Part shown: piece after piece, positions 6,213 through 64,000 of the stretch | Position numbering within the stretch: position 1 is the stretch's first letter | Layout of the letters: each line of letters begins with the position of its first letter | DNA from: Bdellovibrionota bacterium | GTDB lineage: Bacteria; Bdellovibrionota; UBA1018; UBA923 | NCBI GenBank assembly: GCA_040754655.1 | Contig: JBFMCE010000003.1 | Location: forward strand, 3,231 to 67,230 | Reading direction: 5' to 3' | DNA: 64,000 nucleotides | The notes under the pieces: generated by a model | Database searches by the model: none | What the model was told of the DNA's origin: nothing | The model's input: the letters and a program-made list of their open reading frames with translations, nothing else | Made by a program: the position numbers and the translations under genes

Positions 6213-6285
6213 GTACTGAGTAAGTCATTGGAAGAAAAAACTTGTCGGAAAGAAGTAAGCTTTTCCTTTTGTCCCTTCTGGAATG

Positions 6286-7883: not shown

Positions 7884-7889
7884 GTTTGT

Positions 7890-39647: not shown

Positions 39648-42025
<2,378 letters not shown>

Positions 42026-42029
<4 letters not shown>

Positions 42030-45456: not shown

Positions 45457-45458
45457 AA

Positions 45459-46016
45459 ATGGCTTTGACGAAACCCCTTAAAGGAAAACGCATCTATCTG
45501 AGGGAAGTGAAGTTGACTGACGTGAATGATCGTTACGTCAGTTGGCTCAATGATAGCGAAGTCACCAGGTACCTTGAAGTCCGTTTTCACCCTCAGAACC
45601 TTGATACGATCGCAGGCTTCGTCGCTAAAATGCGGGAGAGCGAGAACGAATTTCTTTATGCGATCTGCTTGAGCTCGAACGACCAGCACATCGGCAATAT
45701 CAAGCTCGGTCCGGTGAATGCGCACCATCGTAGCGCTGATGTGAGCCTTTTCATCGGCGAAAAGAAATGCTGGGGGCAGGGCTATGCCGCCGAGGCGATT
45801 GGCTTGGTGACGCGATTCGCTTTTCGTGAGCTTGGGCTCAATAAGTTGAGGGCTGGTTGTTACGCGGGGAATGAGGGCAGCGCTCGCGCATTCGAGAGAG
45901 TCGGATACCGAAGAGAAGGTCTTTTGCGCGGACAAGTTCTCTGCGACGGCAAAGAAACCGACGTCATTACGCTAGGCCTAAGGGCCGTAGAGTATCGCGA
46001 GGAGGCGAATCGATGA
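45459..46016 (+). CDS. GNAT family N-acyltransferase (RimL-like)
   Basis: 185 aa with IGNIKL, GEKKCWGQGYAAEA (acyl-CoA pocket) and FRELGLNKL. Confidence 0.75.
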   Translation: MALTKPLKGKRIYLREVKLTDVNDRYVSWLNDSEVTRYLEVRFHPQNLDTIAGFVAKMRESENEFLYAICLSSNDQHIGNIKLGPVNAHHRSADVSLFIGEKKCWGQGYAAEAIGLVTRFAFRELGLNKLRAGCYAGNEGSARAFERVGYRREGLLRGQVLCDGKETDVITLGLRAVEYREEANR

Positions 46017-49122: not shown

Positions 49123-49684
49123 GAAAGATTGCATTCTTCGCGATGTCATGGTTTTCGACCTTGATCAAATTCTCGAGTGGCGAAACTCAAGCCGCATCCG
49201 CCTGAATATGTTTACTGATCACGAGATCACTCGTAGCGAGCATCTTGGGTGGTTTGAGCGCCAAAAACATGACCCGAAAACGAGGGTAAAGTTATTCGTT
49301 TACAAAAGTGGCCCTGCCGGGATCGTAACGTTTTCAGAAATCGATCCTGATTCAGCGAGCGCGAATTGGGGATTCTACTTAGGCGAGACGGAGCTTCCGA
49401 AGGGGTGCGGCCTGGCAATGGGTTTCTTGGCTTTGAACTTTGCGTTTGAAGAGATCGATTTGTCACGGGTTCACGGCGAATCCTTTTCATTCAATGAGGC
49501 CAGCGTGGGTTATCACCGCAGGCTTGGGTTCGTAGGCGCTGAGCCACGGTTTAAGCCTTTGCTGAAAAATGGTAAGTACGAAGAAATAGCTTCATTTGTT
49601 TTATTGAAAGACGCTTGGTTGCGTCGGAAACCTGAAATTGAACAGCGTATTTTTGGAGAGGTTTTATGCGAACCATCAGCATAG
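49112..49684 (+). CDS. pseH: GNAT N-acetyltransferase, PseH-like
   Basis: FDLDQILEWRNSSRIRLNMFTDHEI...HLGWFE follows the PseH W-R-N pattern. TTG start with GGAGG RBS; an ATG at 49148 is an alternative. Confidence 0.65.
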   Translation: MLDRKDCILRDVMVFDLDQILEWRNSSRIRLNMFTDHEITRSEHLGWFERQKHDPKTRVKLFVYKSGPAGIVTFSEIDPDSASANWGFYLGETELPKGCGLAMGFLALNFAFEEIDLSRVHGESFSFNEASVGYHRRLGFVGAEPRFKPLLKNGKYEEIASFVLLKDAWLRRKPEIEQRIFGEVLCEPSA

Positions 49685-50715
49685 GCGACAGGAAGATCGG
49701 GGAAGGGCAACGCCCCTTCATTATCGCCGAAATGTCGGGTAATCATAACCAGTCGCTGGAAAAGGCATTGGCCATTGTTGATGCGGCCGCCGACGCGGGC
49801 GTGCATGCGCTGAAGATCCAAACTTATACGGCCGATACCATGACGCTTGATCTCGCTGAGCGAGAGTTCGTTATCAAAGATCCGAAGAGTTTATGGAACG
49901 GATATTCGCTCTACAAATTGTACGAGGAGGCGCATACTCCTTGGGAGTGGCACAAACCCATTTTTGAACGGTGCCGTGCGCGAGGGGTAATAGGTTTTAG
50001 CACGCCTTTTGACCGAACTGCTGTTGAATTTCTCAAGACTTTGAACGTTCCTTTTTACAAGATCGCGTCTTTTGAAATTACGGATCTACCCTTGATCGCG
50101 ATGGTGGCTCGCACCGGGAAACCCATGCTGATGTCGGTGGGCATGGCTACGGCTGAAGAAATTGAAGAAGCTGTTGCAACGGCGCGTGCGGAGGGATGCG
50201 AAGAACTCGTGCTGCTCAAATGCACGAGCAGTTATCCGGCGAGTCCTGAGCACACGAACATCAGTACGATTGCTGATATGCGAAAAAGATTCCAATGCAA
50301 TGTGGGGCTTTCAGATCACACTATGGGAGTTGGGGTCGCCGTCGCCGCCATTGCTTTTGGGGCCACGGTCATTGAAAAACACTTTACGCTTTCTCGGACC
50401 GAGGGCGGAGTGGATTCCGCATTTTCTCTCGAGCCTCATGAGATGAAGAGCCTTGTGATCGAGTCTGAAAGAGCTTGGCAGGCGATTGGAAGCGTGAGCT
50501 ATGGCCCGACCGAAAAAGAGAGGCCATCTTTGCAGTATCGGCGATCGATATACATCGCTGAGGATCTGCGCGCAGGCGATGTTTTGAATGCGAAGAACCT
50601 TCGAATCATCCGTCCAGGCTTGGGGCTTGCGCCAAAGCACTATCAAGAACTCTTGGGTAAAGCTTTGAAGAGAGATGCTTCAAAAGGCACCCCAATGAGC
50701 TGGGATTTGGTATGA
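49666..50715 (+). CDS. pseI: Pseudaminic acid synthase PseI (NeuB family with SAF domain)
   Basis: PFIIAEMSGNHNQS NeuB motif and C-terminal SAF region RRSIYIAEDLRAGDVLNAKNLRIIRPGLG. Confidence 0.9.
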   Translation: MRTISIGDRKIGEGQRPFIIAEMSGNHNQSLEKALAIVDAAADAGVHALKIQTYTADTMTLDLAEREFVIKDPKSLWNGYSLYKLYEEAHTPWEWHKPIFERCRARGVIGFSTPFDRTAVEFLKTLNVPFYKIASFEITDLPLIAMVARTGKPMLMSVGMATAEEIEEAVATARAEGCEELVLLKCTSSYPASPEHTNISTIADMRKRFQCNVGLSDHTMGVGVAVAAIAFGATVIEKHFTLSRTEGGVDSAFSLEPHEMKSLVIESERAWQAIGSVSYGPTEKERPSLQYRRSIYIAEDLRAGDVLNAKNLRIIRPGLGLAPKHYQELLGKALKRDASKGTPMSWDLV

Positions 50716-51338
50716 CGGCAGTGAGTCGAATCGTTCTTTTGGATACCGGCATCGGCAACATCCAGTCGGTTGCAAACGTCTTGGAATACATTGGCGCTCA
50801 TTTCTGGGTCTCAGATAAGATCGAAGATTTGTCTAAAGCAGATAAGATCATTTTTCCCGGCGTAGGGACTTATGGCAACGCCATCAAGCGCATGAAAGAG
50901 AAGGGGCTCTTTGAGCCGCTGAAACACGCGATGAACGTCGATCAAAAACCTAGCCTTGGTATTTGCGTAGGCATGCAAGTTCTTTCGGAAATCGGATATG
51001 AGTTTGGTGAGCATCAAGGTTTAGGGATTATTCCTGGAAGCGTCAAGAGGCTGCAAACTGCCGATCGAAAACTGCGCTTGCCCCATGTCGGTTGGAACGA
51101 CGTGAGTCTTAACAAGGACTCCGCCCTTTTTAAGGATATTGAACAAGGCGCATCGTTCTATTTCCTGCACAGCTATTATTTTGAGCCCTCTGATCGTTCA
51201 AACATTTCTTGCACCGTAGATTACGGGCAAAGGTTCACCGCCGCGATCGAGAGGGGAAATGTTTTTGGCGTCCAGTTCCACCCTGAAAAAAGTCAAGGCC
51301 CTGGCATTCAACTGTTTAAGAACTTCGTGGAGATGTGA
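50712..51338 (+). CDS. HisH-like glutamine amidotransferase, copy 2
   Basis: IIFPGVGTY...GICVGMQ...VQFHPEKS. Confidence 0.85.
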   Translation: MTAVSRIVLLDTGIGNIQSVANVLEYIGAHFWVSDKIEDLSKADKIIFPGVGTYGNAIKRMKEKGLFEPLKHAMNVDQKPSLGICVGMQVLSEIGYEFGEHQGLGIIPGSVKRLQTADRKLRLPHVGWNDVSLNKDSALFKDIEQGASFYFLHSYYFEPSDRSNISCTVDYGQRFTAAIERGNVFGVQFHPEKSQGPGIQLFKNFVEM

Positions 51339-51344
51339 CGAGAG

Positions 51345-52157
51345 ATGCTAAAGCACAGGCTTATTCCGTGCCTATTCTTGAGAAATGGGGTTTTAGTTCA
51401 GAGCAGGGGCTTTAAGCGCTACCAAATGCTGGGAAATCCAGTGGTCGCCGTTGATCGCTACAACCAGTGGGGGGTCGATGAATTGATTTACATCGATATT
51501 ACGCCCGGAGCCTATAGCGGCCTGAACCGCGAGGACGTCGCTTCGCCGAGTCGCAACAACATTTTAGATATCATTCGTGACGTCTCGAAGAAGTGTTTCA
51601 TGCCCCTGACTTTTGGCGGTGGGGTGCGAACCTTGAAAGACATTGGCGATAGGCTCGCTTGTGGCGCAGATAAGGTGACGGTCAACACGGCGGCCTTAGA
51701 TGATCCCAAGTTCATTTCAGAGGGTGCAAAAGAATATGGCTCGCAGTGCATTATCCTCTCGATCGATGTCAAGAGGGCGGAAGATGGTTCTTGTCGAGTT
51801 GTGCGCAGTGGCAAAGCGATGACTGATCTTGATGTGATCGAATGGGCTAAAAAAGCTGAGGGACTGGGGGCGGGAGAAATCTTCCTCAATTCCGTTGATC
51901 GCGATGGATCAGGACAAGGTTATGACCTTGAGTTGGTTCGTACGGTCGCACGCTCAGTAAACGTGCCTGTCATTGCTTGTGGAGGAGTCGGAAACTGGGA
52001 CCACTTGGTAGAAGGCGTCAGGCAGGGAGAGGCTTCGGCAGTAGCGGCAGCCAATATTTTCAGCTATAAAGAACAAAGCATTATCGAAGCAAAACAGTAC
52101 TTGATCAAATCCGGCCTGAATTTCCGTCCTGACGGAGCGGGTGAAGGAGTCAAATAA
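51345..52157 (+). CDS. HisF-like cyclase subunit homologue, copy 2
   Basis: RLIPCLFLRNGVLVQSRGF, FGGGVRT, ACGGVGN. Confidence 0.85.
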   Translation: MLKHRLIPCLFLRNGVLVQSRGFKRYQMLGNPVVAVDRYNQWGVDELIYIDITPGAYSGLNREDVASPSRNNILDIIRDVSKKCFMPLTFGGGVRTLKDIGDRLACGADKVTVNTAALDDPKFISEGAKEYGSQCIILSIDVKRAEDGSCRVVRSGKAMTDLDVIEWAKKAEGLGAGEIFLNSVDRDGSGQGYDLELVRTVARSVNVPVIACGGVGNWDHLVEGVRQGEASAVAAANIFSYKEQSIIEAKQYLIKSGLNFRPDGAGEGVK

Positions 52158-52161
52158 AGCC

Positions 52162-53283
52162 ATGCAGTATTGTTCACGTTGTGTTTATCCAGAGATCGCG
52201 GTCAACCTTCTCTTAGATGATGAAGGGATCTGTTCCGCCTGCCGGTCTTATGAAGAGTTTGAAAAGCTTCCACTTGAGTTCTGGAACCAAAGAGAAGTTG
52301 CCTTTCGAGATCTTTTAGAGAGCTATCGCAATAAGAAACAAGACAACTATGATTGCATCATTCCGGTTTCGGGCGGGAAAGACAGCTATTGGCAGACCCA
52401 TCTCGTAAAAAATGTTTATAAGCTGACTCCGTTGTTGGTGACCTATCATGGCAACCGTTTTCTTCCCGAAGGCGAAGAGAACCTCAATAACATGCGGCAT
52501 GTCTTCGGAGTCGATCACGTCATTTTTCGCCCAAGCACCGAAATGTTGAAGAAACTCAACAGAGCTGGCTTTAAGAAGACCGGAGACATGAATTGGCACA
52601 ACCATTGCGGCATTTACACCTATCCGGTTCAAATGGCGGCTCAACTCAATATTCCTTTGATCGTTTGGGGTGAAACACCTTGGGATATTTCTGGCATGTT
52701 CGGGGCCAACGACTTCCCTGAGATGAGCGCGAGAGAGCGCCTTGAGCATGGGCAGCGCGGTTTTGATTGGCACGACTTCGTGGGCGTGGAGGGGCTTGAG
52801 GCTAAAGACTTGCTCTGGGCGCGTTACCCAAGCGACGAAGAGATCAAGCGCGTGGGGATTCGCGGCATTTACGTCGGCAACTTTATCAAGTGGGATGAGA
52901 ACAAGCATTCCAAGCTGGTTGAGGAGAAGTACGGTTTCCAGAAAGCCAGGCAGCCCTTCGAGCGTACGTACCGGCTTTTCTCGAACTTGGATGATATCCA
53001 TGAAAATGGCGCGCATGACTATCTGAAGTACATTAAATTTGGCTATGGCCGGGCTTCGGATCACGCTTCAAAAGATATCCGCAAAGGTTATATGACCCGT
53101 GAGCAAGGTATTGAAATGGTCCGAAAATATGACGCCGTCAAATCGAGTGATACCTACAATTGGCTTGAGTACGTGGGGATGAGTGAAAAGGAATTTGATG
53201 AAATAGCCGACACGTTTCGCGACAAACGGGTCTGGCGGAAAGATTCAGCGGGCAATTGGGTCAAAGACAATCTTTGGGATTGA
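52162..53283 (+). CDS. N-acetyl sugar amidotransferase, PP-loop ATPase, copy 2
   Basis: CSRCVYPE...CSACRS zinc ribbon and PP-loop IPVSGGKDSY, paralogous to the ORF at 42921. The ATG at 52162 has an AGGAG RBS. Confidence 0.8.
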   Translation: MQYCSRCVYPEIAVNLLLDDEGICSACRSYEEFEKLPLEFWNQREVAFRDLLESYRNKKQDNYDCIIPVSGGKDSYWQTHLVKNVYKLTPLLVTYHGNRFLPEGEENLNNMRHVFGVDHVIFRPSTEMLKKLNRAGFKKTGDMNWHNHCGIYTYPVQMAAQLNIPLIVWGETPWDISGMFGANDFPEMSARERLEHGQRGFDWHDFVGVEGLEAKDLLWARYPSDEEIKRVGIRGIYVGNFIKWDENKHSKLVEEKYGFQKARQPFERTYRLFSNLDDIHENGAHDYLKYIKFGYGRASDHASKDIRKGYMTREQGIEMVRKYDAVKSSDTYNWLEYVGMSEKEFDEIADTFRDKRVWRKDSAGNWVKDNLWD

Positions 53284-53289: not shown

Positions 53290-54288
53290 ATGATGAAATA
53301 TGAAGATATCAGCCCGTCTTCGCTCTTAGGCGATCAGAATGCGGCGATGATGCAAGATGTTGCAATGCTACAAGGGAGGCGACGAGAGTTCGTCGAAGTC
53401 GCTTGTCCAGCGTGCGCGGGTTCTCGGCGCACGTCTCTGTATGAGAAATATGGGATGCAGCACGTTGCCTGTGGTGATTGCGAGACCCAGTATATTTCGC
53501 CGCGACCCACCACCAAGGTATTAAGAGACTTTTACGCGCACTCAAAAAACTACGAATACTGGGCCAAACACATCTTTCCTGCAACAGCCGAAGTGAGGCG
53601 AGAGCGCATTTTTAAGCCCAGGGCAAAGCTCATCGCGGATCTCAGCCGGCAGCACGGCGCAAGACCCGGACTTCTCATGGAAGTCGGAGCAGGTTATGGC
53701 TTCTTTTGCGAAGAGATAGGCAAACTTCAGGTTTTTGACCGCGTTGTTGGCATCGAGCCCACCCCTCATTTGGCCGAGATCTGCCGTAAAAAAGGGATTG
53801 AGACGATTGAGTCGGTAATCGAAGACGTCAACCTTGAGGTGAAAGCCGATGTGGTCGTCAATTTCGAGGTCATCGAGCATCTCTTTGACCCCCATGCTTT
53901 CTTGGCTGCATGTCTCGAGCGACTCAATCCTAAAGGGCACTTGATCTTGACTTGCCCCAATATCGCGGGCTTCGAAACACAGATGCTCAAGAGGTCTTCT
54001 GACACGATTGACCATGAGCATTTGAATTATTTTTCTCCTGCTTCCCTGAAAAAACTGGCGGAACGAGTGGGCTTTCAAGTGATTCGTGTGCAGACACCGG
54101 GTGTGCTTGATGTGGATATCGTGTACCAACGGCTGAAAGACCAAGTGAAGGAAGGTATTGAAGTAGATCCTTTTATCCAAAGAATTCTCTTTTCCCAAGA
54201 TGAGAGCTTGCGCGATCAGTTCCAGAAGTTTTTGACTGAAGCAGGGCTTTCATCGAACATGATGCTGATCGCGCAAAAACCTCGATGA
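53290..54288 (+). CDS. Class I SAM-dependent methyltransferase with N-terminal Cys4 zinc-ribbon (paralogous architecture to 3354-4247)
   Basis: CPACAG...CGDC ribbon, LMEVGAGYGFF motif I, FEVIEHLFDP. Confidence 0.7.
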   Translation: MMKYEDISPSSLLGDQNAAMMQDVAMLQGRRREFVEVACPACAGSRRTSLYEKYGMQHVACGDCETQYISPRPTTKVLRDFYAHSKNYEYWAKHIFPATAEVRRERIFKPRAKLIADLSRQHGARPGLLMEVGAGYGFFCEEIGKLQVFDRVVGIEPTPHLAEICRKKGIETIESVIEDVNLEVKADVVVNFEVIEHLFDPHAFLAACLERLNPKGHLILTCPNIAGFETQMLKRSSDTIDHEHLNYFSPASLKKLAERVGFQVIRVQTPGVLDVDIVYQRLKDQVKEGIEVDPFIQRILFSQDESLRDQFQKFLTEAGLSSNMMLIAQKPR

Positions 54289-55892
54289 AGGCGTTCTCTT
54301 TACTGAAAAAAATCTGCAGGCGCGTGCTTCTTGATTCTGACGAACGTCATTTCGCACGCCACCAGGCTGAATACTCAAAGCGTTTGCTGAAGAATACGAA
54401 GCAGGACAAGAGGCGCATCCTCATCGACTTCTTCGACTCGAATTTAGTGGTTTACAGTTCAGGCCTTACTGCGCGTTATCTTGCGAGCAAGCTCAATGCC
54501 TCGATCGATGGTTTCCTCTTCGCTCGTGGCTGGGCCGGAAGACTCGGGATCCCGAGCCGAAGAATCGAGAAACTTTATGGGGCTTTTGGGGCGCGACCTA
54601 GGCTTTCTTTCAAAGAAGGGGAAAGGTTTTCGAAAGAGGCTCAAGAATACGCCGATCAGACGTTCTCAAGCCTGAAAAACAAATGGGATGTGGTCAACCT
54701 TTCAATCGATGGGGTGAAGATCGGTGATCTCGTGTATGACACCTACCTTCGAGCGGGCCGCTGGACCGTTGACCTCGCCGATCCGAGGCTAAAAGAAATC
54801 CTTTGCGACGCTTTTCTGATCTTCAAGCTTTGCAGAGAGTACTTCCGAAACCACGACGTCTGCGCAGTCATTACCTCTCACTGCGTGTATATTTCTCATG
54901 GCATCTTGGTCAGGGTCGCCAGCACTTTCCGAGTTCCTGTATTTTTCGTCATGGACCCTTATAAATTCCAAGTCGTCGAAGTTCGCGAAGATAACAATCA
55001 CTATCATTTTTATTACCACCGCTATAAAGAGCTCTTTGCGCGATTTAACGAAGTTGAAAAACAAAAGCATCGCGACGAAGCAAGAAAGGTTTTGCTAGAG
55101 CGGCTGTCAGGCAAGATCGACAGCGGGATCGCCGACATCCTGGAAGACGGTAGACCCGGATTGCACGGTTATGGCGCATTTTCAGAAGGCCGCTTGCTCA
55201 AAGAGACGGGGCGCCCTCGCGTGATCGTCATGCTCAATTGTTTTCTCGATGCCCCTCATTGTTATCGCGACATGCTCTTCCCTGATTTTTGGGAATGGAT
55301 CAACTTCGTGCTCAGTCGCGCTTCTCAGACATCGTTTGATTGGTACGTAAAGCCCCATCCCGGAGGTCTTCCTCAGAACGATCTTGTCTTGGAAGAACTC
55401 AAGAGAAAATACCCCAAAGTGAATTTCCTCGGTCGGTCTGCGTCGAATCGGCAAATTGCCGCAGAAGGAATCGACGCGATGTTCACGGTGTTCGGCACCG
55501 CGGCCCATGAGTTTGCTTACATGGGCATCCCGGTCGTGACCGCGGGAGACAACCCTCACGTCAACTATGGGTTTAACTTTCATCCTCGCACGGTTGAGGA
55601 GTACGAGAAATTCATCGCGAATGCCGGTCATTTGAAGATCGAGATCGACAAAGCCGAGATCGAAGAGTTTTTTTACATGCATTACATCGATGCGCATCGA
55701 CCGAATCCGTTCGGTGCGATCTGCGTTGATGATTCTTTGAGCTCGCAGGTTGTTGGCGCCCGGGTCAATCATCCAAGCATACTCAAGGATTACGTCAGGA
55801 CGGAAACCCAAGAGAAACTGCAAAAATTAGAAGCTTATTTGGGTGATTTTTTTGGGAACTATTTCCCTCAGATCAAAAACGAGCCTGGCTGA
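54285..55892 (+). CDS. Large hypothetical GT-B-like protein (Capsule_synth/TagF-like?), paralog group A; candidate nonulosonate transferase
   Basis: 535 aa. VIVMLNCFLDAPH...WYVKPHPGG...FTVFGTAAHEFAYMGIPVV shares the [KR].HP / S/T-rich / G.PV pattern with 14543 and 59629. It is the last gene of the pse operon. Confidence 0.3.
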   Translation: MKAFSLLKKICRRVLLDSDERHFARHQAEYSKRLLKNTKQDKRRILIDFFDSNLVVYSSGLTARYLASKLNASIDGFLFARGWAGRLGIPSRRIEKLYGAFGARPRLSFKEGERFSKEAQEYADQTFSSLKNKWDVVNLSIDGVKIGDLVYDTYLRAGRWTVDLADPRLKEILCDAFLIFKLCREYFRNHDVCAVITSHCVYISHGILVRVASTFRVPVFFVMDPYKFQVVEVREDNNHYHFYYHRYKELFARFNEVEKQKHRDEARKVLLERLSGKIDSGIADILEDGRPGLHGYGAFSEGRLLKETGRPRVIVMLNCFLDAPHCYRDMLFPDFWEWINFVLSRASQTSFDWYVKPHPGGLPQNDLVLEELKRKYPKVNFLGRSASNRQIAAEGIDAMFTVFGTAAHEFAYMGIPVVTAGDNPHVNYGFNFHPRTVEEYEKFIANAGHLKIEIDKAEIEEFFYMHYIDAHRPNPFGAICVDDSLSSQVVGARVNHPSILKDYVRTETQEKLQKLEAYLGDFFGNYFPQIKNEPG

Positions 55893-56524
55893 CGTTCTTT
55901 TACGATGCGTGCCGGAGTTCCGACGGCAACTACGTTTTGGGGAATGTCTTCCACCACCGCAGCACCCGCGCCGATGAGCGCATGCTCGCCCACATTGATC
56001 TGATGGATGATCGAGGCGCCAAGCCCCACCATCGACATCTTGCCGATCTTGCAGTTGCCTCCGAGAGTTGCACCGGGTCCGATGCTGGCAAAGTCTTCAA
56101 CCGCGCAGTCGTGGTCGATGCTCGAAGCCGTATTGACGATGCAATGAGAGCCTATTTTTGTTGAGGGGTTGATGCAGGTCCCGGCCATGACGACGCTTCC
56201 GGGTCCGATTTCCACATCTTTGCCAATTTGCGCACTGGGATGGATGGCGACTACAAATTGAAAACCTGGGGCCAAGCGCCCGATTCTTTCAACAAGCTTT
56301 GACCTCGCCCAATTGTCGCCGATGGCCACGATCCCTTGAGTGACTTTGAATTCACCCAATCGAGACTCTGGGCCTAAAACGGGGTAACCAAGGGCTGTGG
56401 CCGTCTTTACAGAATCGTCGAGGATACCGACGATCTTGTACTTGCCTTGTTTTTCCAAGATATCGATGATGACTTTGGCGTGGCCGCCCGCTCCAAAGAC
56501 AAGAACCGGTTCTTTCATTCCCAT
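55868..56524 (-). CDS. NeuD/PglD-family sugar N-/O-acetyltransferase (left-handed beta-helix), LegH-like
   Basis: N-terminal Rossmann-like PVLVFGAGGHAKVI followed by hexapeptide repeats IGPGSVVMAGTCINPSTKIGSHCIVNTAS. Confidence 0.8.
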   Translation of the reverse strand: MGMKEPVLVFGAGGHAKVIIDILEKQGKYKIVGILDDSVKTATALGYPVLGPESRLGEFKVTQGIVAIGDNWARSKLVERIGRLAPGFQFVVAIHPSAQIGKDVEIGPGSVVMAGTCINPSTKIGSHCIVNTASSIDHDCAVEDFASIGPGATLGGNCKIGKMSMVGLGASIIHQINVGEHALIGAGAAVVEDIPQNVVAVGTPARIVKERQPGSFLI

Positions 56525-56533
56525 ACCTATAAA

Positions 56534-56555
56534 TTGGCGCTGATGATAACGCCAA
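56534..56555. promoter_or_regulatory. Inverted repeat TTGGCG-N10-CGCCAA in a divergent intergenic region
   Basis: Read directly from the sequence. Lies between the NeuD-like start (56524, minus) and the PtmE-like start (56619, plus). Confidence 0.25.
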
Positions 56556-56618
56556 AGCTAACGAATTGCAGTCTGAATATCTAGTAAAAAAGCCGAGTTA
56601 TGGCTATAGATAGAAACT

Positions 56619-57668
56619 ATGAAGAACTGGCGAGATGCTTTGGTCAGAACGGATTCCACGGTTCGGGACGTGATTCAGAACCTGAACACAAGTCGAATTC
56701 AAATCGCTCTTGTGGTCGATTCCAACGAGACTTTGCTGGGCACAGTGGTGGACGGGGATATTCGTCGCGCGATCCTGAAAGGAATACCCCTTGAATCCAA
56801 TATCAGCGCGATCATGAACAAGTCTCCAAAAACCGCGCGTACGCAAGAAACTCGCGAAGAGATTCTCGCGAAGATGAAGAAGACCAAACTGCGCCATTTT
56901 CCGATCGTTGATGAGAAGGGCCGAGTCGTGGGGCTTGAGCTCTTGGAAGAGCTGATGCTTCCGGCCCAGAAGAACAATGAGGTTGTGATCATGGCTGGAG
57001 GAATGGGCAGCCGCCTCGGCGAGTTGACGGCTGAGCGCCCAAAACCCTTATTGAATGTCGGGAATAAGCCTTTGCTTGAAACCATTTTGCTGAGTTTTAA
57101 ACAGCAAGGATTTTTTAAGTTCTCGATCTCGGTTCACTACAAGGCCGATATGATCGAAGACCACTTCAGGGACGGCTCAGACTTGGGAGTGCAGATCAAA
57201 TACCTGCGCGAAGACCAAAAACTAGGCACGGCAGGCGCATTAGGGCTGATCGAGGAAAAACCCCATTTGCCTTTTGTCGTCATGAATGGCGACCTGCTGA
57301 CGAAGGTCAATTTCGAGCGGCTTCTTGAAACCCATGAAGAGCAAAAGGCGGCGTTGACGATGTGTGTGCGCGAATATGACCTTCAAGTCCCGTACGGGGT
57401 TGTTCGCCTTGAGAACCAGAAGGTCGTGGGGATCGATGAAAAACCTGTTCAGCGCTTTTTCGTGAACGCTGGCATCTATGTGCTTGATCCATCAGTACTC
57501 GAGTTTATACCAAAGAATCAGTCTCTCGATATGCCCGCGCTTGTCGAGACTTTGATCAAGAGTCGGTTGAAGACGGTGGCTTTTCCGGTGACCGAGTATT
57601 GGCTTGATATCGGGCGCCACTCTGACCTTGAGCGCGCCAAGGATGAATTTCTCGGAGAGTTCAAGTGA
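56619..57668 (+). CDS. CBS-domain sugar-phosphate nucleotidyltransferase, PtmE-like (GlcN-1-P guanylyltransferase type of legionaminic acid pathway)
   Basis: Two CBS-like segments (QIALVVDSNETLLGTVVDGDIRRA; LRHFPIVDEKGRVVGL), then the NTP-transferase motif VVIMAGGMGSRLGELTAERPKPLL. Confidence 0.75.
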   Translation: MKNWRDALVRTDSTVRDVIQNLNTSRIQIALVVDSNETLLGTVVDGDIRRAILKGIPLESNISAIMNKSPKTARTQETREEILAKMKKTKLRHFPIVDEKGRVVGLELLEELMLPAQKNNEVVIMAGGMGSRLGELTAERPKPLLNVGNKPLLETILLSFKQQGFFKFSISVHYKADMIEDHFRDGSDLGVQIKYLREDQKLGTAGALGLIEEKPHLPFVVMNGDLLTKVNFERLLETHEEQKAALTMCVREYDLQVPYGVVRLENQKVVGIDEKPVQRFFVNAGIYVLDPSVLEFIPKNQSLDMPALVETLIKSRLKTVAFPVTEYWLDIGRHSDLERAKDEFLGEFK

Positions 57669-58363
57669 TTCAAGGGAAGAAAGTCCTTGCGGTCATTTGC
57701 GCTCGCGGAGGCTCAAAGGGCATTCCTCGTAAAAATATCCGGGCGCTTGGCGGAAAACCGCTCATTGTTTGGAGCATCGAAGAGGCGAAGAAGTCACGCT
57801 TTATCGATCGTCTTGTTCTCTCATCCGATGACCAAGAGATCATTCAAGTTGCGGAAAAGTTTGGTTGCGAAGCGCCATTCGTGCGGCCGGCTGAATTGGC
57901 TGGTGACGAAGTCTCGGGAGTAGATCCTGTTTTGCATGCCCTTAAAGAGTTGCCCGGTTATGACTACGTTGTGCTGTTGCAGCCGACTTCACCCTTTCGA
58001 ACGGCTCAAGACATCGATGGTTGCATTGAGCTTTGCTTAGAGAAGAGTTCTCCATCGTGCGTCAGTATTGCCGAGGCCGAGCAGAGTCCGTATTGGATGT
58101 TTAGCCTCAATGAAGGTTTGTGTCTTTCGCCTTTATTCGACCTGAAGTCTATGCCAACGCGCAGGCAAGAAGCCAAGACCGTGTACTCGCTCAACGGAGC
58201 GGTCTATGTCGCTAAGACGGACTGGCTTTTGAAAACGAGAGGTTTTCTGACTGCCGAGACATCGGGGTATCTCATGCCAAAAGAGAGGTCGCTTGACCTT
58301 GATGATGAGCTCGATTGGGATGTGGCACAAGCACTGCTCGCTCGAAAAAGGGGAGGCGCGTGA
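57665..58363 (+). CDS. Acylneuraminate cytidylyltransferase family (CMP-legionaminic acid synthetase LegF-like)
   Basis: LAVICARGGSKGIPRKN NeuA motif. GTGA stop/start overlap with the PtmE-like gene. Confidence 0.8.
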   Translation: MIQGKKVLAVICARGGSKGIPRKNIRALGGKPLIVWSIEEAKKSRFIDRLVLSSDDQEIIQVAEKFGCEAPFVRPAELAGDEVSGVDPVLHALKELPGYDYVVLLQPTSPFRTAQDIDGCIELCLEKSSPSCVSIAEAEQSPYWMFSLNEGLCLSPLFDLKSMPTRRQEAKTVYSLNGAVYVAKTDWLLKTRGFLTAETSGYLMPKERSLDLDDELDWDVAQALLARKRGGA

Positions 58364-59661
58364 AGAAGTTCGGCATTCTTCTAGCAGCTCTTGTGAGCGT
58401 ATTGATCCTTGCGGAAATCCTTGTCGTCACGCTGGTGGATCTCGAAGCATACAAACCCATAGTACTAGCGAAAGTACACGAAAGAATAAGTGGGAAGCTT
58501 GAGCTGGGAAAAATTCGTCCTAGCATTTGGACGGGTCCCAAAATTTGGATCGAAAGCATGCGCCTTGCGGATGAACGAGGACGAACGGCCATGAAGGCGC
58601 AAGACGTGACTCTGCGTTTCTCGCTCCTTTCGTTATTGGCGGGGCAACCCAAAGTTCAACTGAGGCTCGATAGCCCGGTGTTTACGCTCATCAAAGACAA
58701 AAGCGGTCCATACAATGTGCAGATGCTGCTTGCAAAACCGAAGGGTCGATCGACATCGGCGGTGCTCGATTGGAAAGAGCGCCTCATCGGTTTTGCAAAG
58801 AAAACCAAAGGCAAACTCTTGATCAGCGGAGCCCTTGTCGAAGTCATAGAAGAGGAATCAGGAAGAAGAGCCACGATCGATGATGCAGATCTCAAAGTCG
58901 ATAATATTGCCGCAAGGGGCGACATCTCGTTCGAAGCTTCAACCGAACTCAGAACGATCATACACCATGGGATCAGGCTCTCTGGCTTAGCCTCTACGGC
59001 CGGCATAGCGTCGTTATCGGATGGAGAAGATGGATCGAAGATCGTGGCGTTTCAGGCAAGGGTGGATTTGAGCCCTGTGGACATCGCTTATCATGGAAAG
59101 TTCAACAAGCACAAAGGCGCAGCCTTTCTGCTAGACGCCAAGGGATCTGTTTCCAAACAAAAGATTGATCTTTCTTCAGCAGAATTTCGGCTTGGCCAGA
59201 TGTTTCTCGAAGGCAATGGATCGGTTGCAAAACAAGATGATGCCCGGTCTGTCGATTTGAAAATGAAGTCTAACAGGGTCGACCTAGGCGAATTGGCCAA
59301 GATTCTGCCTCGGGCGAAGTCATCAGGTCTAGACGGAACCGTTGAGTTTTCAGCCCATGTTTATGGCCTCAAAAGCGATATTCAAGGCAACGGCAATGCG
59401 CATTTGTCGGAAGTCACGTGGAAGCCCAAGATGACCCAGGCGGCTTCTCTTATGATTACGGGTGACATGAAAGTCGATCTAGATCGACAGCGCGGAATGA
59501 ATGTAGATGCGAACGCAAAAGGATTTGATTCCAGCCTTTTCAGCAAAGCCATGAAAACTTTTCTAAACTCTCGCTTTTCCTCGGGCTCCGCTCAAGGAAA
59601 GCGGGATATTGACCACGATCTCATACAACTACTCGCCGGACTCGAAGCGGCCCGGCGTTGA
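58360..59661 (+). CDS. AsmA-like envelope protein (N-terminal membrane anchor, beta-rich periplasmic domain)
   Basis: Start VKKFGILLAALVSVLILAEIL (GTG, GGGAGG RBS) gives a single TM anchor followed by an extended domain as in AsmA/TamB-like proteins. Confidence 0.45.
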   Translation: MKKFGILLAALVSVLILAEILVVTLVDLEAYKPIVLAKVHERISGKLELGKIRPSIWTGPKIWIESMRLADERGRTAMKAQDVTLRFSLLSLLAGQPKVQLRLDSPVFTLIKDKSGPYNVQMLLAKPKGRSTSAVLDWKERLIGFAKKTKGKLLISGALVEVIEEESGRRATIDDADLKVDNIAARGDISFEASTELRTIIHHGIRLSGLASTAGIASLSDGEDGSKIVAFQARVDLSPVDIAYHGKFNKHKGAAFLLDAKGSVSKQKIDLSSAEFRLGQMFLEGNGSVAKQDDARSVDLKMKSNRVDLGELAKILPRAKSSGLDGTVEFSAHVYGLKSDIQGNGNAHLSEVTWKPKMTQAASLMITGDMKVDLDRQRGMNVDANAKGFDSSLFSKAMKTFLNSRFSSGSAQGKRDIDHDLIQLLAGLEAARR

Positions 59662-61287
59662 GTTTCTTTTCAGTGCATAGCCAGCCAAATGATCTACGGT
59701 CCGACTGACTTCGGGATTGATGGCAGGATTGAGTTGCGGCGCCTTAGACTGATAATCGATATAGGCATAAACTTTTTCGTTATACACCGGCAGGCTATAA
59801 CACCGGTCGAATAGATACCAATAGGAAAACTTCAAGAAGTTTTCCCGGTGATCCTGTTGCTTGAACTTTGCAATGAGATCGGCGGGTGCTGAGAGCATTT
59901 CAAAGTATTCTTCGGGCGTCTTAGGCTCAAATGCCGATCCCGAGCCATAAGTACGGGATCGGGCAGCCAAGACCGCTGGTTTATTCAGGTAAGGCAATTC
60001 AAGCCCGATCATCCCGTCAAAGACCAGCCCAACATCCACATGATGGAGGATGAATTCATAGGTGTTCAATTTAACATCCGAGGAAATGATTGAAATGTTC
60101 TTGATTTGATCCAGGTGCGGAACGCGCGCACGGATCATGGGTTCAAGCTTTTGGCTGTACGTGAGAATTGTGGCTTCGCTCGGATGGATCCTCAGCACAA
60201 GGTGACTTTCAGGATGTGATGAGAAGAACTTCACGGTGGCCACGATCCAGTCGATCGCGCTCTTGAAGAGAGTATTTCTTTGGACAATGTCCCCATCCCA
60301 GATGACGTTGGGAAAGAGCGCAAAGGTGTGTTTCGCATTTCCTTTTTCGATTTTCGGAAGAGTCCACGTTTCCATGCCTTTATAATAACGTCTGGTGTCA
60401 ATGGCGCCCCCGGAAATGCGAGACCGGAAATACTCTTCCACCTGAAGTTTTTGTTCCGCTGAAAGAGCGGTTTTTCGAAAAGTTTCCCAGCTTCGATCGT
60501 TGGTGATGAAGTTGACTGTATTTTCGTAAATGCTGATGCGTTGCGGCCGATAGACTGAAGGGTAATAAACCAAGCAGGATTGCCCTTTTGACTTTAAATA
60601 GTCTAAAGCCGGACCCCAAACAGAATAGATTCCATGCGAGGTGACATACAGGTTAGGCTTCAAATGCTGCTCAACGTATCGCGCTACTTTTTTCGAGATC
60701 TGGCAGTTCTTCAGGCATACCTCGAAGAACATCGTGTATGCAGGATCCTCCCAACGCATTTCGCCGCTTTGGAAGTATTTACGAACCGAGCTTTCCGCAT
60801 GGTTTCGATCCCCTTGGTTAAGAGGCAGATCCTCTCGGATGGTTTTTAGGATCGTGGAGTACCGGACGATCTCGATGTTCGGATGGGAGAAGATCTTGTT
60901 TGAAAGAAAACCATATCCCCCTCTTAAGATTCGGTTCTTAAGAGTCTTGTGGAATTTGTAATCATCGTCAGAATGGGTTCTTAGAAAATATTCCCAGTGC
61001 TCGAGTTGAAAATCGTCCATGAGGATCTTCACCTGAAAGCCATCACAAGCCATCAAATAAGCCAGGTAATGCTCGGGATTGACGTCAGGAAGGTAGGCCC
61101 CGACCGCGTTGAAAACGATGCAACCTTCGCTCGAGCCTTTGTAGCCAATCTTCTTGATTTGCTCACGCAAGCCGTAAGAGTCAAAAAGTTGTTTGCTGAT
61201 CTTATGAAATCTGTTCATCTTCTTTAAAATCCCGCTCGGCGATTTTTCCAAGCCAATCCCAATAAAAAACAGGGCTGACCCCGTCAC
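59629..61287 (-). CDS. Large hypothetical GT-B-like protein (Capsule_synth/TagF-like?), paralog group A; candidate nonulosonate transferase
   Basis: 552 aa. HTFALFPNVIWDG...LVLRIHPSEAT...LELPYLNKPAV shares the pattern with 14543 and 54285. GTG start at 61287 overlaps the upstream LegI-like gene by 86 nt; an internal ATG at 61218 is an alternative. Confidence 0.3.
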   Translation of the reverse strand: MTGSALFFIGIGLEKSPSGILKKMNRFHKISKQLFDSYGLREQIKKIGYKGSSEGCIVFNAVGAYLPDVNPEHYLAYLMACDGFQVKILMDDFQLEHWEYFLRTHSDDDYKFHKTLKNRILRGGYGFLSNKIFSHPNIEIVRYSTILKTIREDLPLNQGDRNHAESSVRKYFQSGEMRWEDPAYTMFFEVCLKNCQISKKVARYVEQHLKPNLYVTSHGIYSVWGPALDYLKSKGQSCLVYYPSVYRPQRISIYENTVNFITNDRSWETFRKTALSAEQKLQVEEYFRSRISGGAIDTRRYYKGMETWTLPKIEKGNAKHTFALFPNVIWDGDIVQRNTLFKSAIDWIVATVKFFSSHPESHLVLRIHPSEATILTYSQKLEPMIRARVPHLDQIKNISIISSDVKLNTYEFILHHVDVGLVFDGMIGLELPYLNKPAVLAARSRTYGSGSAFEPKTPEEYFEMLSAPADLIAKFKQQDHRENFLKFSYWYLFDRCYSLPVYNEKVYAYIDYQSKAPQLNPAINPEVSRTVDHLAGYALKRNSTPGRFESGE

Positions 61288-62281
61288 CGGGTCTCTTTGA
61301 AGTGAGGTTTTTCTCGCTGAAAACCTCTCCTTTGCGAATGGCAGTCGCCGCTACAAGGCTTCTCCTCACGACGGGTTTGTTTTTTTCTTCGGAACGGGAG
61401 GCCTGTTTTTCACCTGTTCCAAGAGAAGCTTCAACCTGACGGATCATTTGCACCATCAGCTTGAGTTCGTGTGGTTCAAGCGAGCAAAGGTGATCGGGGC
61501 CAGGAAGCCTCTTGTCTAGAGTGAAGTGTTTCTCGATGACCGTAGCGCCCAGTGCGACCGCCGCGACGGGGGCTGATAATCCCATGGTGTGGTCGGAATA
61601 TCCGGTTGAAAGGCCAAAGACGTCTCGTAGCGTGCTGATCGCCTTGAGGTTGGCCTCTGACCAGTCGGCGGGATATTCAGAGACGCAATGGAGCAGGGTC
61701 ACCTTGGCTGCCAAGGCCTCTTTCCCTGTTTGAGAATGGAAGGCTTCTTGAAACGCCGCTAGCGAAGGTTTCCGCTGAATTTTGAGATAGCCGAATGCGA
61801 TTACGCCCAAGGCCGTTTCGATTTCACTGAGAGAGCTCATGCCCGTCGAAAGAATGACGGGTTTGCCGGTGTGCGCTACCGACAAAAGCAAAGGAGCATT
61901 GGTGATGTCGCCTGAACCGATCTTGAGCAAGTCTAAATGAAGGTCATTGGTTAAGAAGTCAGCGCTTTCAACGTCAAACGGCGTGGACAAAAAGCCGATG
62001 CCTTTCGCACGCGCATATTTGAGTAGGTTTCGATAGACCGAAGGAGCAAGTTCAAGCCGCTTGAGCATTTCAAACTGGCTTTCCGCCACTCCGGTGTTTT
62101 TCGTTTGATACTCGGCTTGCTTAGCGGATTTTGACACCAAGGCCGCCGATTTGAACGTCTGAAACTTGACCGCGTCAGCCCCTGCTTCCGCCGCCGCGTC
62201 GATGAGCTGAATCGCGAGGTCTTCTGATCCGTTGTGATTGACTCCTGCCTCAGCGATGATGAAGGTTGGTCTTTTTTTCAT
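61202..62281 (-). CDS. N-acetylneuraminate/legionaminate synthase (NeuB/LegI) with SAF domain
   Basis: FIIAEAGVNHNGS NeuB motif and C-terminal RRSLVAATAIRKGEVFSEKNLTSKRPG SAF domain. Confidence 0.85.
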   Translation of the reverse strand: MKKRPTFIIAEAGVNHNGSEDLAIQLIDAAAEAGADAVKFQTFKSAALVSKSAKQAEYQTKNTGVAESQFEMLKRLELAPSVYRNLLKYARAKGIGFLSTPFDVESADFLTNDLHLDLLKIGSGDITNAPLLLSVAHTGKPVILSTGMSSLSEIETALGVIAFGYLKIQRKPSLAAFQEAFHSQTGKEALAAKVTLLHCVSEYPADWSEANLKAISTLRDVFGLSTGYSDHTMGLSAPVAAVALGATVIEKHFTLDKRLPGPDHLCSLEPHELKLMVQMIRQVEASLGTGEKQASRSEEKNKPVVRRSLVAATAIRKGEVFSEKNLTSKRPGDGVSPVFYWDWLGKIAERDFKEDEQIS

Positions 62282-63432
62282 AGGTCGAAAAACTTCTTCT
62301 GAATGAACTTTTGATAGTTATGGGTTTTTTTTAAAGTCGCAACAATCCGCTCGCTCGCATGACCATCGCCATAAGGATTGACCACGTTTGAGCAATCGAG
62401 CGCAAGGGCTTTTGTGATGGCTTGCGCGATCTCGCTTGAGCGAGGCTCGCAATGAACAACTGATTGCGCTCGCACGCGTCCTTTCTGGCGGTCACCGATA
62501 TCGACTGTCGGCTTTTTGAACGAGGGCGCTTCAAGCAGTCCGCTTGAAGAGTTTCCTAAAACCAAATCCACCTGCGCGACCGTGCTCCAGTAACGCGTTT
62601 GTCCCAGAGAGTTGTGAAACCTCATTTGTGGCCTGGTGTTCACGTGCGTCTCGATCTTTTGGTTCAAAGCCCTGCCTCCGGAGTCGGCGTTGGCGCCGGT
62701 GAAAATCACTCCTACACTCTCATCCAATCCTTCCAAGGCGCTAAAAATCTCCTCAAGGTGAAGCATTGAGTCTTCGTGACTTGCAGTCACCGGGTGATAG
62801 GTAACGAGAATATTCCTCTCTCGTAGTTTGAAATCTAAGCTTTTTTCAAGCTCAGAGCGAGAAAGCAGTGGAAGGGTCCGCAGATAGTCGAGGCCAGGAT
62901 TGCCCACCACAAAAATCTGATTTGGGTCCTCGCCTAATTGCCTTACCCGCTTTGCCGAACTTTCGGTTGAGACGAAGTGCAGGTGTGAGAGTTTCGTGAT
63001 GCAGTGGCGGATGGAATCGTCTAGTGCGCCTTCGGTCAAGTCCCCGCCGCAAAGGTGAGCGATCGGCAATTTTGCGAGGAAAGCGGCCTGGGCCGCGGCT
63101 AAAATCTCATACCGGTCGCCTAGCAAGACCACCAGTTCAGGTTTGAGTTTTTGGAAAGCTTCGGCAAACCCGATCAGGCCGTTGCCCATGGCCCGGGTCA
63201 CGGCCAAATCCGTATCCCCTGAAGACCGCAGATCGATTTTTTCGCTGATTTGAAAGCCGTCTTTTTCAATTTCCCGATAAGTAGAGCCAAATTCTGGCAT
63301 CAAGTGCATGCCGGTCACAAACAGGTGCAAATCGAAGGAAGGCTCGTTTTGAATTTCTCGCATCAGGCTGTGCAGAAGCCCATACTCGGCTCGACTTCCC
63401 GTAACCATGCAGATCTTGCGCTTTTGGGTCAT
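62278..63432 (-). CDS. UDP-N-acetylglucosamine 2-epimerase (hydrolysing), NeuC/LegG
   Basis: KICMVTGSRAEYGLL is the NeuC signature. 384 aa. Confidence 0.9.
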   Translation of the reverse strand: MTQKRKICMVTGSRAEYGLLHSLMREIQNEPSFDLHLFVTGMHLMPEFGSTYREIEKDGFQISEKIDLRSSGDTDLAVTRAMGNGLIGFAEAFQKLKPELVVLLGDRYEILAAAQAAFLAKLPIAHLCGGDLTEGALDDSIRHCITKLSHLHFVSTESSAKRVRQLGEDPNQIFVVGNPGLDYLRTLPLLSRSELEKSLDFKLRERNILVTYHPVTASHEDSMLHLEEIFSALEGLDESVGVIFTGANADSGGRALNQKIETHVNTRPQMRFHNSLGQTRYWSTVAQVDLVLGNSSSGLLEAPSFKKPTVDIGDRQKGRVRAQSVVHCEPRSSEIAQAITKALALDCSNVVNPYGDGHASERIVATLKKTHNYQKFIQKKFFDL

Positions 63433-63518
63433 TGGCCCACAACATACCAGACCTGAAGCGTTGAAGACATGCTGATTTTGGTTGACGCGGCCACTTAAAT
63501 CCCTGACATCTAGAAGAA

Positions 63519-64000
63519 ATGAAGAAGGCTTTAGTCACCGGGGCCGCCGGATTTATTGGCTCTCATCTCTGCGAATATCTTGTAAAAAAAGGGATCGAAG
63601 TCAGGGCGTTTGTCCACTACAACTCACAAAATGCTTGGGGTTGGCTTGAAAATTCAAGCTCTAGAGGCTCACTTGAGATTGCCTCGGGCGACCTCAGGGA
63701 CTTTGACAGTGTGAGTCGCGCCATCAAAGGCGTGGATTCTGTTTTCCACCTTGGCGCCTTGATTGGGATTCCTTATAGCTATGAGTCGCCTCTGGCGTAT
63801 GTGCGGACGAATGTCGAAGGCACTTACAATATTTTGGAGTCCTCGCGTCGTGAGGGTGTAAATCGGGTTTTGGTCACCTCAACGAGCGAGGTGTACGGAA
63901 CGGCAAGATATGTCCCGATAGATGAGAAGCATCCGCTGCAACCGCAGTCGCCCTACTCTGCCAGCAAGATCGGGGCTGATAACTTGGCTCTAAGCTACTT
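63519..64000 (+). CDS. NAD-dependent sugar-nucleotide 4,6-dehydratase (RfbB-like; LegB-like), 3'-truncated by window end
   Basis: MKKALVTGAAGFIGSHLCEYL...YSASK, extended SDR dehydratase type. Partial. Confidence 0.75.
   Translation, partial: MKKALVTGAAGFIGSHLCEYLVKKGIEVRAFVHYNSQNAWGWLENSSSRGSLEIASGDLRDFDSVSRAIKGVDSVFHLGALIGIPYSYESPLAYVRTNVEGTYNILESSRREGVNRVLVTSTSEVYGTARYVPIDEKHPLQPQSPYSASKIGADNLALSY

Follow-up and report, generated by a model that had tools for sequence, protein, structure and literature searches.

The 64-kb stretch of DNA analysed here (hereafter called the window) comes from an uncultured Bdellovibrionota bacterium and contains a surface-sugar locus, in which genes for legionaminic acid (Leg) lie beside genes for pseudaminic acid (Pse). 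This much is well supported. Judged from the sequence, the interval 55868-64000 probably encodes most of the pathway to CMP-legionaminic acid (Leg5Ac7Ac or a derivative), distributed over four short transcription units. Both sugars are bacterial mimics of sialic acids, and shape recognition by phages, by predators or prey and by immune systems. The combination of the two pathways is already known; the window is a further, fairly ordinary example of it. Its most interesting by-product is a pair of unnamed transferase families.

Genes were called from a map of open reading frames (ORFs) and from hidden Markov model (HMM) scans with the Pfam and NCBIfam collections at their curated cut-offs. The family assignments are direct observations. 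All six gene types that the original prediction had located in the interval were found there, with E-values of 1e-40 to 1e-142, which is far beyond chance. They are arranged as neuD (minus strand), ptmE-legF-asmA (plus strand), legG-legI followed by the gene of a 552-amino-acid (aa) protein (minus strand), and legB (plus strand). The AsmA-like gene and the 552-aa protein, which likewise lie inside the interval, had gone unmentioned. From PseB (MEW6055160) to LegI (MEW6055181) the protein accessions run free of gaps, and all 22 genes are also called in the public annotation.

Four lines of evidence agree on the Leg-type reading, as originally predicted: the score on the LegB model, the best solved match of the candidate LegG, the type of the nucleotidyltransferase, and synteny. 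The LegB-type NAD-dependent 4,6-dehydratase (63519-64000, plus strand) is cut by the window end. Its N-terminal 160 of about 330 residues cover positions 2-159 of the 297 of model TIGR04180 and score 257 bits, the cut-off for the full-length protein being 475. The dTDP-glucose dehydratase model yields 94 bits, GDP-mannose dehydratase 65 and PseB 54, which puts LegB at 2.7 times the next-best family. In the protein collection the fragment's nearest homologue is 73% identical; one relative at 69%, among the closest, is annotated as Neomoorella humiferrea. The gene is transcribed divergently from legG and opens a plus-strand unit that continues beyond the window end. Candidate LegG (62278-63432, minus strand) is a hydrolysing NDP-sugar 2-epimerase (TIGR03568, 463 bits). 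Its top solved relative is the LegG of Acinetobacter, a GDP/UDP-N,N'-diacetylbacillosamine 2-epimerase (hydrolyzing) (5xvs/5zlr), with 316 bits, as compared with 185 bits for human GNE and 47 bits for SiaA of N. meningitidis (6vlb).

The third line is the sugar-1-phosphate nucleotidyltransferase of PtmE/LegX type at 56619-57668 (plus strand), a candidate glucosamine-1-phosphate (GlcN-1-P) guanylyltransferase. Its N-terminal tandem CBS pair is followed by an NTP_transferase domain (PF00483, 145 bits), the GGxGxRL motif of which is intact and reads GGMGSRLG. Two CBS domains plus a nucleotidyltransferase are also the architecture of Cj1329 PtmE and of LegX (10.1101/2022.03.25.485807). LegX is genetically required for Leg-dependent flagellin glycosylation in Brevundimonas, and LegX/PtmE has been proposed, in the same preprint (10.1101/2022.03.25.485807), as a bioinformatic marker that parts Leg from Pse pathways. 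The protein of the window is 44-56% identical to the legF-adjacent gene product of the Leg operons L001-L015 and L067, and its gene overlaps legF by 4 bases.

The other three enzymes are candidate LegF, LegI and LegH. Candidate LegF, the CMP-legionaminic acid synthetase (57665-58363, plus strand), is a NeuA-like cytidylyltransferase (CTP_transf_3, 82 bits); its nearest solved structures are CMP-Neu5Ac synthetases (1eyr at 124 bits), it stays at 157 bits on the PseF model (cut-off 206), and it is 54-62% identical to the product of the final gene of Leg operons. Candidate LegI (61202-62281, minus strand) is a nonulosonic acid synthase of the NeuB family and has a SAF domain. On TIGR03569 it scores 474 bits (cut-off 400), on the PseI model 281 bits; it shares 36% identity with the window's own PseI and 53-56% with the synthases of operons in which LegB and LegC occur. 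Among solved structures, SpsE, PseI and NeuB score alike with it and do not separate it from the Neu5Ac synthases. Candidate LegH (55868-56524, minus strand), which would N-acetylate the 4-amino group, is a hexapeptide N-acetyltransferase of the NeuD/PglD family (PglD_N and Hexapep domains; TIGR03570, 224 bits, cut-off 161). Its nearest solved structures are the 4-amino-sugar N-acetyltransferases PerB, PglB-ATD, VioB and PglD. The match is at family level, and homologues of 33-39% identity hold the LegH position in Leg operons.

For synteny, one genome per species was scanned with the window's LegG, which gave 62 loci, and all window proteins were mapped onto these. In all seven of the closest loci with a LegB-type gene (L001-4, L007, L009 and L015, from Pseudomonadota, Thiofaba and Halothiobacillaceae) the order is LegB-DegT-LegG-LegI-NeuD-PtmE-LegF. 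The identities to the window proteins are 60-65% for LegB, 48-50% for LegG, 53-56% for LegI, 44-46% for PtmE, 54-58% for LegF and 33-36% for NeuD. L016 has the same gene order without a match to NeuD. The PtmE-LegF pair is kept beside LegB-type operons in nine loci. A metagenomic contig (L067) is comparably rearranged yet has the complete set: PtmE (56% identical), LegF (62%), NeuD, LegI (53%), LegG (47%) and a LegC-family gene with 415 bits. In each of the eight loci with a LegB of 60-65% identity (the seven and L016) a DegT-family gene lies directly 3' of legB. In L001 this gene proved to be LegC: LegB of this locus, 63% identical to our fragment, scores 529 bits (cut-off 475), the next gene 527 bits on the LegC model (cut-off 420). 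By analogy, it is reasonable to expect legC just after legB, past the window end.

A further locus stems from the same phylum. In a Bdellovibrionota metagenome-assembled genome (MAG; L063, JBTCPS010000065.1, 9300-10476) a LegB homologue of 68% identity is preceded by a 234-aa nucleotidyltransferase without the CBS pair; compared with the window's PtmE-like protein, it matches the catalytic domain at 39% identity. CBS domains are thus not universal in the Leg-type clusters of this lineage. The L063 sequence stops at the same point within legB as the window does.

Several observations weigh against a Leg pathway of the predicted kind. No LegC-type aminotransferase was found in the 64-kb window; its only DegT-family gene is PseC, which reaches 241 bits on the LegC model TIGR04181, where the cut-off is 420. 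PgmL, PtmA and PtmF, the dedicated suppliers of GlcN-1-P, are families not seen among the window ORFs scanned; the related operons L001-L015 likewise show none of them between their leg genes, so they are not a strict requirement. The choice between GDP and UDP is not readable from the sequence, and the closest solved LegG is itself named for both nucleotides. No model used tells LegI from NeuB or LegF from NeuA. Because neither the models nor the structures separate these pairs, LegI and LegF are assigned by context and synteny. The Leg genes are spread over both strands with the AsmA-like gene in between, and co-regulation is not evident. Finally, a 535-aa candidate transferase, discussed below, has its closest homologue beside a Leg cluster (L067) and others beside Pse genes (L068 and L070).

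These points call for a comparison with other explanations. It is very improbable that the genes make N-acetylneuraminic acid (Neu5Ac) in the manner of E. coli K1, by NeuC, NeuB, NeuA and an O-acetylating NeuD. On this reading the short-chain dehydrogenase/reductase (SDR) at the window end would have nothing to do with them and be a dTDP-glucose dehydratase from an rml operon, and the nucleotidyltransferase would resemble RmlA. Of course, NCBIfam names the synthase and the epimerase for NeuB and NeuC (TIGR03569 and TIGR03568), NeuD also occurs in sialic acid clusters, and the top solved relatives of LegF are CMP-Neu5Ac synthetases. The epimerase, however, prefers the Acinetobacter Leg enzyme to SiaA by the wide margin given above, and the nucleotidyltransferase has the tandem CBS of PtmE/LegX and scores 48 bits on the RmlA model, where 361 are required. 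For each of the six genes the nearest homologues are members of operons with LegB and LegC, and rmlC and rmlD are not nearby. That the dehydratase might belong to an rml operon had been considered in the original prediction; the LegB and dTDP-glucose scores of the fragment speak against it. In view of the LegB score, the solved match of LegG, the CBS nucleotidyltransferase and the synteny, the sialic acid and rml readings were both rejected. Unlikely too, though less so, is a Leg-type pathway that works on UDP-GlcNAc or ends in another isomer (8-epi- or 4-epi-legionaminic or acinetaminic acid), with the CBS-nucleotidyltransferase serving a different sugar of the repeat unit. In Legionella the legionaminic pathway has reportedly been shown in vitro to proceed on UDP-GlcNAc. 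The closest solved LegG is described as taking GDP or UDP substrates, PgmL, PtmA and PtmF are absent from the window, and the locus has many other sugar-modifying genes. In addition, among the archaeal and Candidate Phyla Radiation (CPR) loci that LegG retrieved, many rely on dehydratases resembling PseB/PglF and have no PtmE-like gene. In the nine loci with LegB-type operons, on the other hand, PtmE is accompanied by dehydratases of the LegB type (TIGR04180), not of the PglF type; the overlap of the PtmE-like gene with legF and the conservation of this pair, as well as the genetic requirement for LegX in Brevundimonas, also argue for a role of the enzyme in Leg synthesis. An extra epimerase or reductase of the ElaA-C type was not seen in the interval.

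The Leg set could also be incomplete and without function, LegC being truly missing and the genes being remnants of a rearranged operon or co-opted to modify Pse products. The canonical order is indeed broken into four units on both strands with unrelated genes between them, LegC was not found in the window, and the MAG's own LegB is not among the homologues of the fragment (the best is 73% identical), although neighbouring proteins are present in the collection. We nevertheless consider this quite improbable: all seven genes read as uninterrupted ORFs of the usual length and keep their catalytic motifs, L067 is likewise rearranged and yet complete, LegC included, and legB is cut by the window edge only, the contig, of 67,634 bp, being 3.6 kb longer than the window. 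A different matter is the destination of the sugars, where the alternative is compatible with the Leg pathway preferred here. The polysaccharide-type context that had been predicted was found in full: a WbaP-type initiating transferase at 20219, a Wzy_C protein at 29445-31049 (minus strand, 9 transmembrane (TM)-like segments) and a fused ABC exporter of MsbA/PglK type at 16482-18143 (minus strand). The locus also has a PMT_2 protein of glycosyltransferase fold GT-C (11904-13490, plus strand, 8 TM-like segments). Wzy_C is a domain of the O-oligosaccharyltransferases PglL and PilO, but also of WaaL and Wzy. Protein O-glycosylation (general, of an S-layer or of pilin), with the Wzy_C protein as a PglL-type oligosaccharyltransferase, is therefore a possible, if rather doubtful, destination; the WbaP-type transferase, the exporter, which could act as flippase, and the PMT_2 protein suit it. 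Tannerella forsythia caps its protein O-glycan with Pse/Leg derivatives by means of HP-motif transferases encoded beside a methyltransferase gene (PMC5420450). Genes for an acceptor protein, an S-layer or a pilin, in contrast, were not found in the window, and its further polytopic membrane proteins, possibly Wzx or Wzy, fit an ordinary Wzy-dependent polysaccharide. Taken by themselves, Wzy_C, PMT_2 and the fused exporter fit PglL-type protein O-glycosylation as well as O-antigen synthesis.

The Leg pathway would then run as follows. The CBS-nucleotidyltransferase of PtmE/LegX type would make an NDP-glucosamine, most likely GDP-GlcN; here we infer GDP rather than UDP from the presence of the PtmE-like gene. 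Housekeeping enzymes would provide GlcN-1-P and would also convert the product into GDP-GlcNAc. LegB would carry out the C4,6 dehydration, and the 4-amino group would be added by the aminotransferase LegC, the gene of which is outside the window and is expected directly after legB. The NeuD/PglD-type enzyme, in the role of LegH, would N-acetylate this amino group. LegG is predicted to remove the nucleotide and to epimerise C2, LegI to condense the product with phosphoenolpyruvate, and LegF to activate Leg with CTP. In parallel, the Pse block directly upstream (PseB, C, H, G and I plus a cytidylyltransferase fusion) would yield a CMP-pseudaminic acid derivative. Two amidotransferase sets and a methyltransferase may tailor one or both sugars. 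Two soluble GT-B proteins with the HP motif, finally, would place Leg and Pse on an undecaprenyl-linked glycan begun by the WbaP-type enzyme, which is encoded elsewhere in the locus.

One of these GT-B proteins has 552 aa (59629-61287, minus strand; in the annotated form, AB1540_01085, 529 aa, 59629-61218) and contains a conserved HP..E motif; it is a candidate CMP-nonulosonic-acid transferase. Its gene follows legG-legI in the same orientation, with an overlap at the end of legI. The second candidate, a GT-B-like protein of 535 aa (AB1540_01060, 54285-55892, plus strand), is encoded by the last gene of the pse operon. Sequence searches with the two proteins gave no match in Pfam, NCBIfam or the PDB, and a PDB profile search with the 535-aa family gave nothing either. 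No homologue closer than 54% identity turned up for either protein, and among the relatives of the 552-aa protein only a few remote ones carry PF05159.

Alignments of the families are informative. In that of the 552-aa protein (A1), H345-P346, N304 and D308 are invariant and form H-P-x-E and N-x-x-x-D motifs; a D-D near the N terminus is nearly invariant. In the family of the 535-aa protein (A2), H358 and D322 are invariant and P359 is nearly so. This family is much larger than the other, with 2544 representative clusters (at least 2,500 at 50% identity), and has no Pfam model. In the retaining CMP-ulosonic-acid transferases HP and an upstream acidic or Q/N-x-x-x-D motif are the catalytic motifs. 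A comparison of the two families by hhalign gave a probability of 99.5% and an E-value of 1.2e-22, the HP motifs as well as the N-x-x-x-D motifs falling into register; by this measure the two window proteins are distant paralogues. For the 552-aa protein AlphaFold gives a confident model (predicted local distance difference test, pLDDT, 88.8; predicted template modelling score, pTM, 0.90), and the fold of the candidates is GT-B with the greatest similarity to KpsC/WbbB.

The genomic neighbourhood points in the same direction. All five contexts of 552-aa homologues that were inspected (L030, L057, L064, L065 and L066) are nonulosonic-acid or Pse clusters, and so are all four of 535-aa homologues (L067-L070). 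Three of these four (L067, L069 and L070) have NeuB-type neighbours; in L068 the homologue lies beside PseB, PseC and an aldo/keto reductase (AKR). On the basis of motifs, fold and contexts we propose that the 535-aa and 552-aa proteins are CMP-nonulosonic-acid transferases. They resemble CMP-Kdo/Pse transferases.

Which protein would handle which sugar is another question. A division of labour, with one transferase for Pse and the other for Leg, was considered and dropped: the 535-aa homologues adjoin both Leg (L067) and Pse genes (L068 and L070), and sugar specificities can therefore not be assigned.

HP and D/E-D/E-G motifs are typical of bacterial sialyltransferases and of the Pse/Leg transferases of Tannerella (PMC5420450). 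The retaining CMP-ulosonic-acid transferases described so far comprise KpsC/KpsS (GT107), WbbB (GT99), KpsS1 (GT118) and KrkA (GT140), and KpsS1, which transfers Pse5Ac7Ac, is related to KpsC and WbbB (PMC12887879). In contrast to the single modules of GT107 and GT99, the window proteins are larger (535-552 aa) and have no significant sequence match to solved structures or Pfam. Tentatively, and with the outcome leaning slightly the other way, the two proteins may stand for two large unnamed families of CMP-nonulosonic-acid glycosyltransferases, with a KpsC/WbbB/KpsS1-like fold plus HP motif, that build a surface glycan with two nonulosonic acids, or three if the NeuB module at 1-8747 is counted, in a phylum for which none has been described. 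The locus has supplied two uncharacterised GT-B families that consistently occur inside nonulosonic-acid clusters, and as concrete candidate transferases these are the more useful by-product. Few transferases for these sugars have been described, and they are sought for glyco-engineering.

The Pse pathway upstream had been called complete. This holds for five enzymes, all on the plus strand and above their equivalog cut-offs: PseB (39874-40869; TIGR03589, 551 bits, cut-off 408), PseC (40866-42029; TIGR03588, 549 bits, cut-off 424), PseG (48052-49122; TIGR03590, 287 bits, cut-off 154), PseH (49073-49684; TIGR03585, 103 bits, cut-off 93) and PseI (49666-50715; TIGR03586, 488 bits, cut-off 340). 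It does not hold for PseF. No window protein reaches the cut-off of 206 bits of TIGR03584, the values being 157 bits for the gene at 57665, 134 bits for the one at 1202 and 31 bits for the N-terminal domain of a fusion protein.

This fusion (46013-48055, plus strand) occupies the PseF position between pseC and pseG. It consists of an SpsF/KdsB-like cytidylyltransferase (residues 1-186; CTP_transf_3, 114 bits; 67 bits on KdsB-type models) and a class-III aminotransferase (residues 250-680; Aminotran_3, 180 bits). In a Pse cluster of Vibrio an SpsF-like cytidylyltransferase, fused to another domain, follows PseC and has been proposed to replace NeuA (PMC7371886). By analogy, the fusion of the window is a plausible candidate for a non-canonical CMP-Pse synthetase that would substitute functionally for PseF. 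Its aminotransferase half looks like glutamate-1-semialdehyde aminomutase, and stand-alone or fused homologues of it recur in the nonulosonic-acid loci L028, L031, L032, L043, L050, L057, L059, L060 and L064.

The remaining genes of the block, again on the plus strand, probably serve to make acetamidino or otherwise tailored sugars. They encode the AKR (42026-42928; PF00248), a first WbuX/HisH/HisF amidotransferase set (42921-45456; TIGR03573, 344 bits, TIGR01855, 223 bits, TIGR03572, 272 bits), a GNAT acetyltransferase (45366-46016; PF13302), a second amidotransferase set in the order HisH/HisF/WbuX (50712-53283; TIGR01855, 229 bits, TIGR03572, 271 bits, TIGR03573, 326 bits) and an S-adenosylmethionine (SAM) methyltransferase (53290-54288; Methyltransf_23). 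The two sets are only 31-37% identical to each other. Their presence in one operon, the second being followed by the methyltransferase, hints at two different modifications of acetamidino type, one of them possibly N-methylated. The amidotransferase trios of the loci found with LegG are closer to the second set than to the first. Parts of the block are conserved elsewhere: PseI-HisH-HisF-WbuX is kept in L070 with 66, 46, 53 and 61% identity, respectively, and the arrangement PseB-PseC-AKR recurs in L068.

How does the locus compare with known systems? In Campylobacter jejuni CMP-Leg5Ac7Ac is made by PtmE, LegB, LegC, LegH, LegG, LegI and LegF (Schoenhofen et al. 2009, cited in PMC7371886 and 10.1101/2022.03.25.485807). 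The window has the same enzyme families for six of the seven dedicated steps, the tandem-CBS enzyme included, and a Pse pathway nearby. The likeness is at family level. LegC was not seen in it, owing to the window edge; PgmL, PtmA, PtmF, flagellin and Maf are absent, and its setting is a WbaP/Wzy_C/ABC locus of polysaccharide type in Bdellovibrionota. As originally predicted, no flagellin and no Maf family turned up in any of the large ORFs scanned. The capsule genes of Acinetobacter baumannii (lga) are reported to have the same Leg gene content. The environmental Pseudomonadota operon (L001-L004, L007, L009 and L015; e.g., Thiofaba sp. EF100) encodes proteins 33-65% identical to those of the window and shares with it the adjacency of PtmE and LegF; the window genes, however, form four units on both strands, with AsmA-like and transferase genes inserted and legB diverging from legG. 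LegX of Brevundimonas subvibrioides and MOHU_20790 of Moorella humiferrea also combine two CBS domains with a nucleotidyltransferase and are encoded next to legB, legG and legF (10.1101/2022.03.25.485807). In Brevundimonas, however, the product glycosylates flagellin via FlmG, whereas flagellin and FlmG/Maf are not present in the window.

The claim that complete Leg and Pse pathways rarely occur together proved overstated. Among only 62 loci, adjacent sets are found in L027 and probably in L030 and L057. L027, a Planctomycetales MAG, has Leg beside Pse genes (PseB 60% and PseC 46% identical, and PseG); L030 and L057, both Paceibacterota MAGs, are the probable cases. Loci for several nonulosonic acids have been published for Leptospira interrogans (PMC3438082) and 'Ca. 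Accumulibacter' (10.1101/2020.11.02.365007). These and the flagellar glycosylation island of Campylobacter likewise have several NeuB paralogues and CMP-synthetases per locus. The window differs in its phylum and in uniting, within a single polysaccharide locus of 64 kb, Pse, Leg and a third NeuB-type module that includes a KdsC-like phosphatase. Among the papers found to name both Bdellovibrio and nonulosonic acids, none had a title or abstract on these sugars in that group. The window adds a case from Bdellovibrionota in which the genes sit in a locus of polysaccharide type, with no flagellin genes. This supports the idea that such sugars occur commonly in environmental bacteria and need not go with the glycosylation of flagellin.

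The third module (1-8747) lies on the minus strand, has two plus-strand insertions and looks like one for another nonulosonic or ulosonic acid. It comprises a NeuB-family synthase without SAF domain (7890-8747; TIGR03569, 230 bits, below the cut-off; best solved match 6ncs), a TIM-barrel protein similar to sugar-phosphate isomerases/epimerases (7035-7883), two SDRs (6286-7044 and 2406-3251), a phosphatase of KdsC/YrbI type (1939-2412; KdsC 107 bits, Kdn-9-P phosphatase 86 bits) and a cytidylyltransferase (1202-1921), the third NeuA-like one. The gene of a class-III aminotransferase is cut by the window start. The gene content suggests a route via a phosphorylated intermediate, of the Kdn type or the animal-like Neu type. 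With this module, the window totals three NeuB paralogues and four cytidylyltransferase domains.

Some minor features complete the inventory. Apart from the genes already mentioned, the window holds several GT2 and GT4 enzymes, a UDP-sugar dehydrogenase and further polytopic membrane proteins. A scan of the interval 55868-64000 for promoters and terminators performed no better than with shuffled sequence, and neither Rfam families nor tRNAs were found in the window. The GC content is flat at about 0.50 throughout the window and gives no sign of a recently acquired island. AsmA-family proteins are connected with the assembly of outer-membrane lipid or lipopolysaccharide. The AsmA-like protein of the interval (58315-59661, plus strand; PF05170, 31.7 bits, cut-off 29.8; weak DUF748 and YhdP) has a single TM-like segment, N-terminal, at residue 15. 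Its gene lies directly 3' of legF in the same orientation and overlaps the legF end, inside a sugar-nucleotide operon. The third module, finally, is interrupted on the plus strand by the genes of a SAM methyltransferase (3231-4247) and of a 352-aa protein (5154-6212) whose C terminus has an HNH nuclease motif; the two perhaps form a small insertion of mobile or restriction-related nature.

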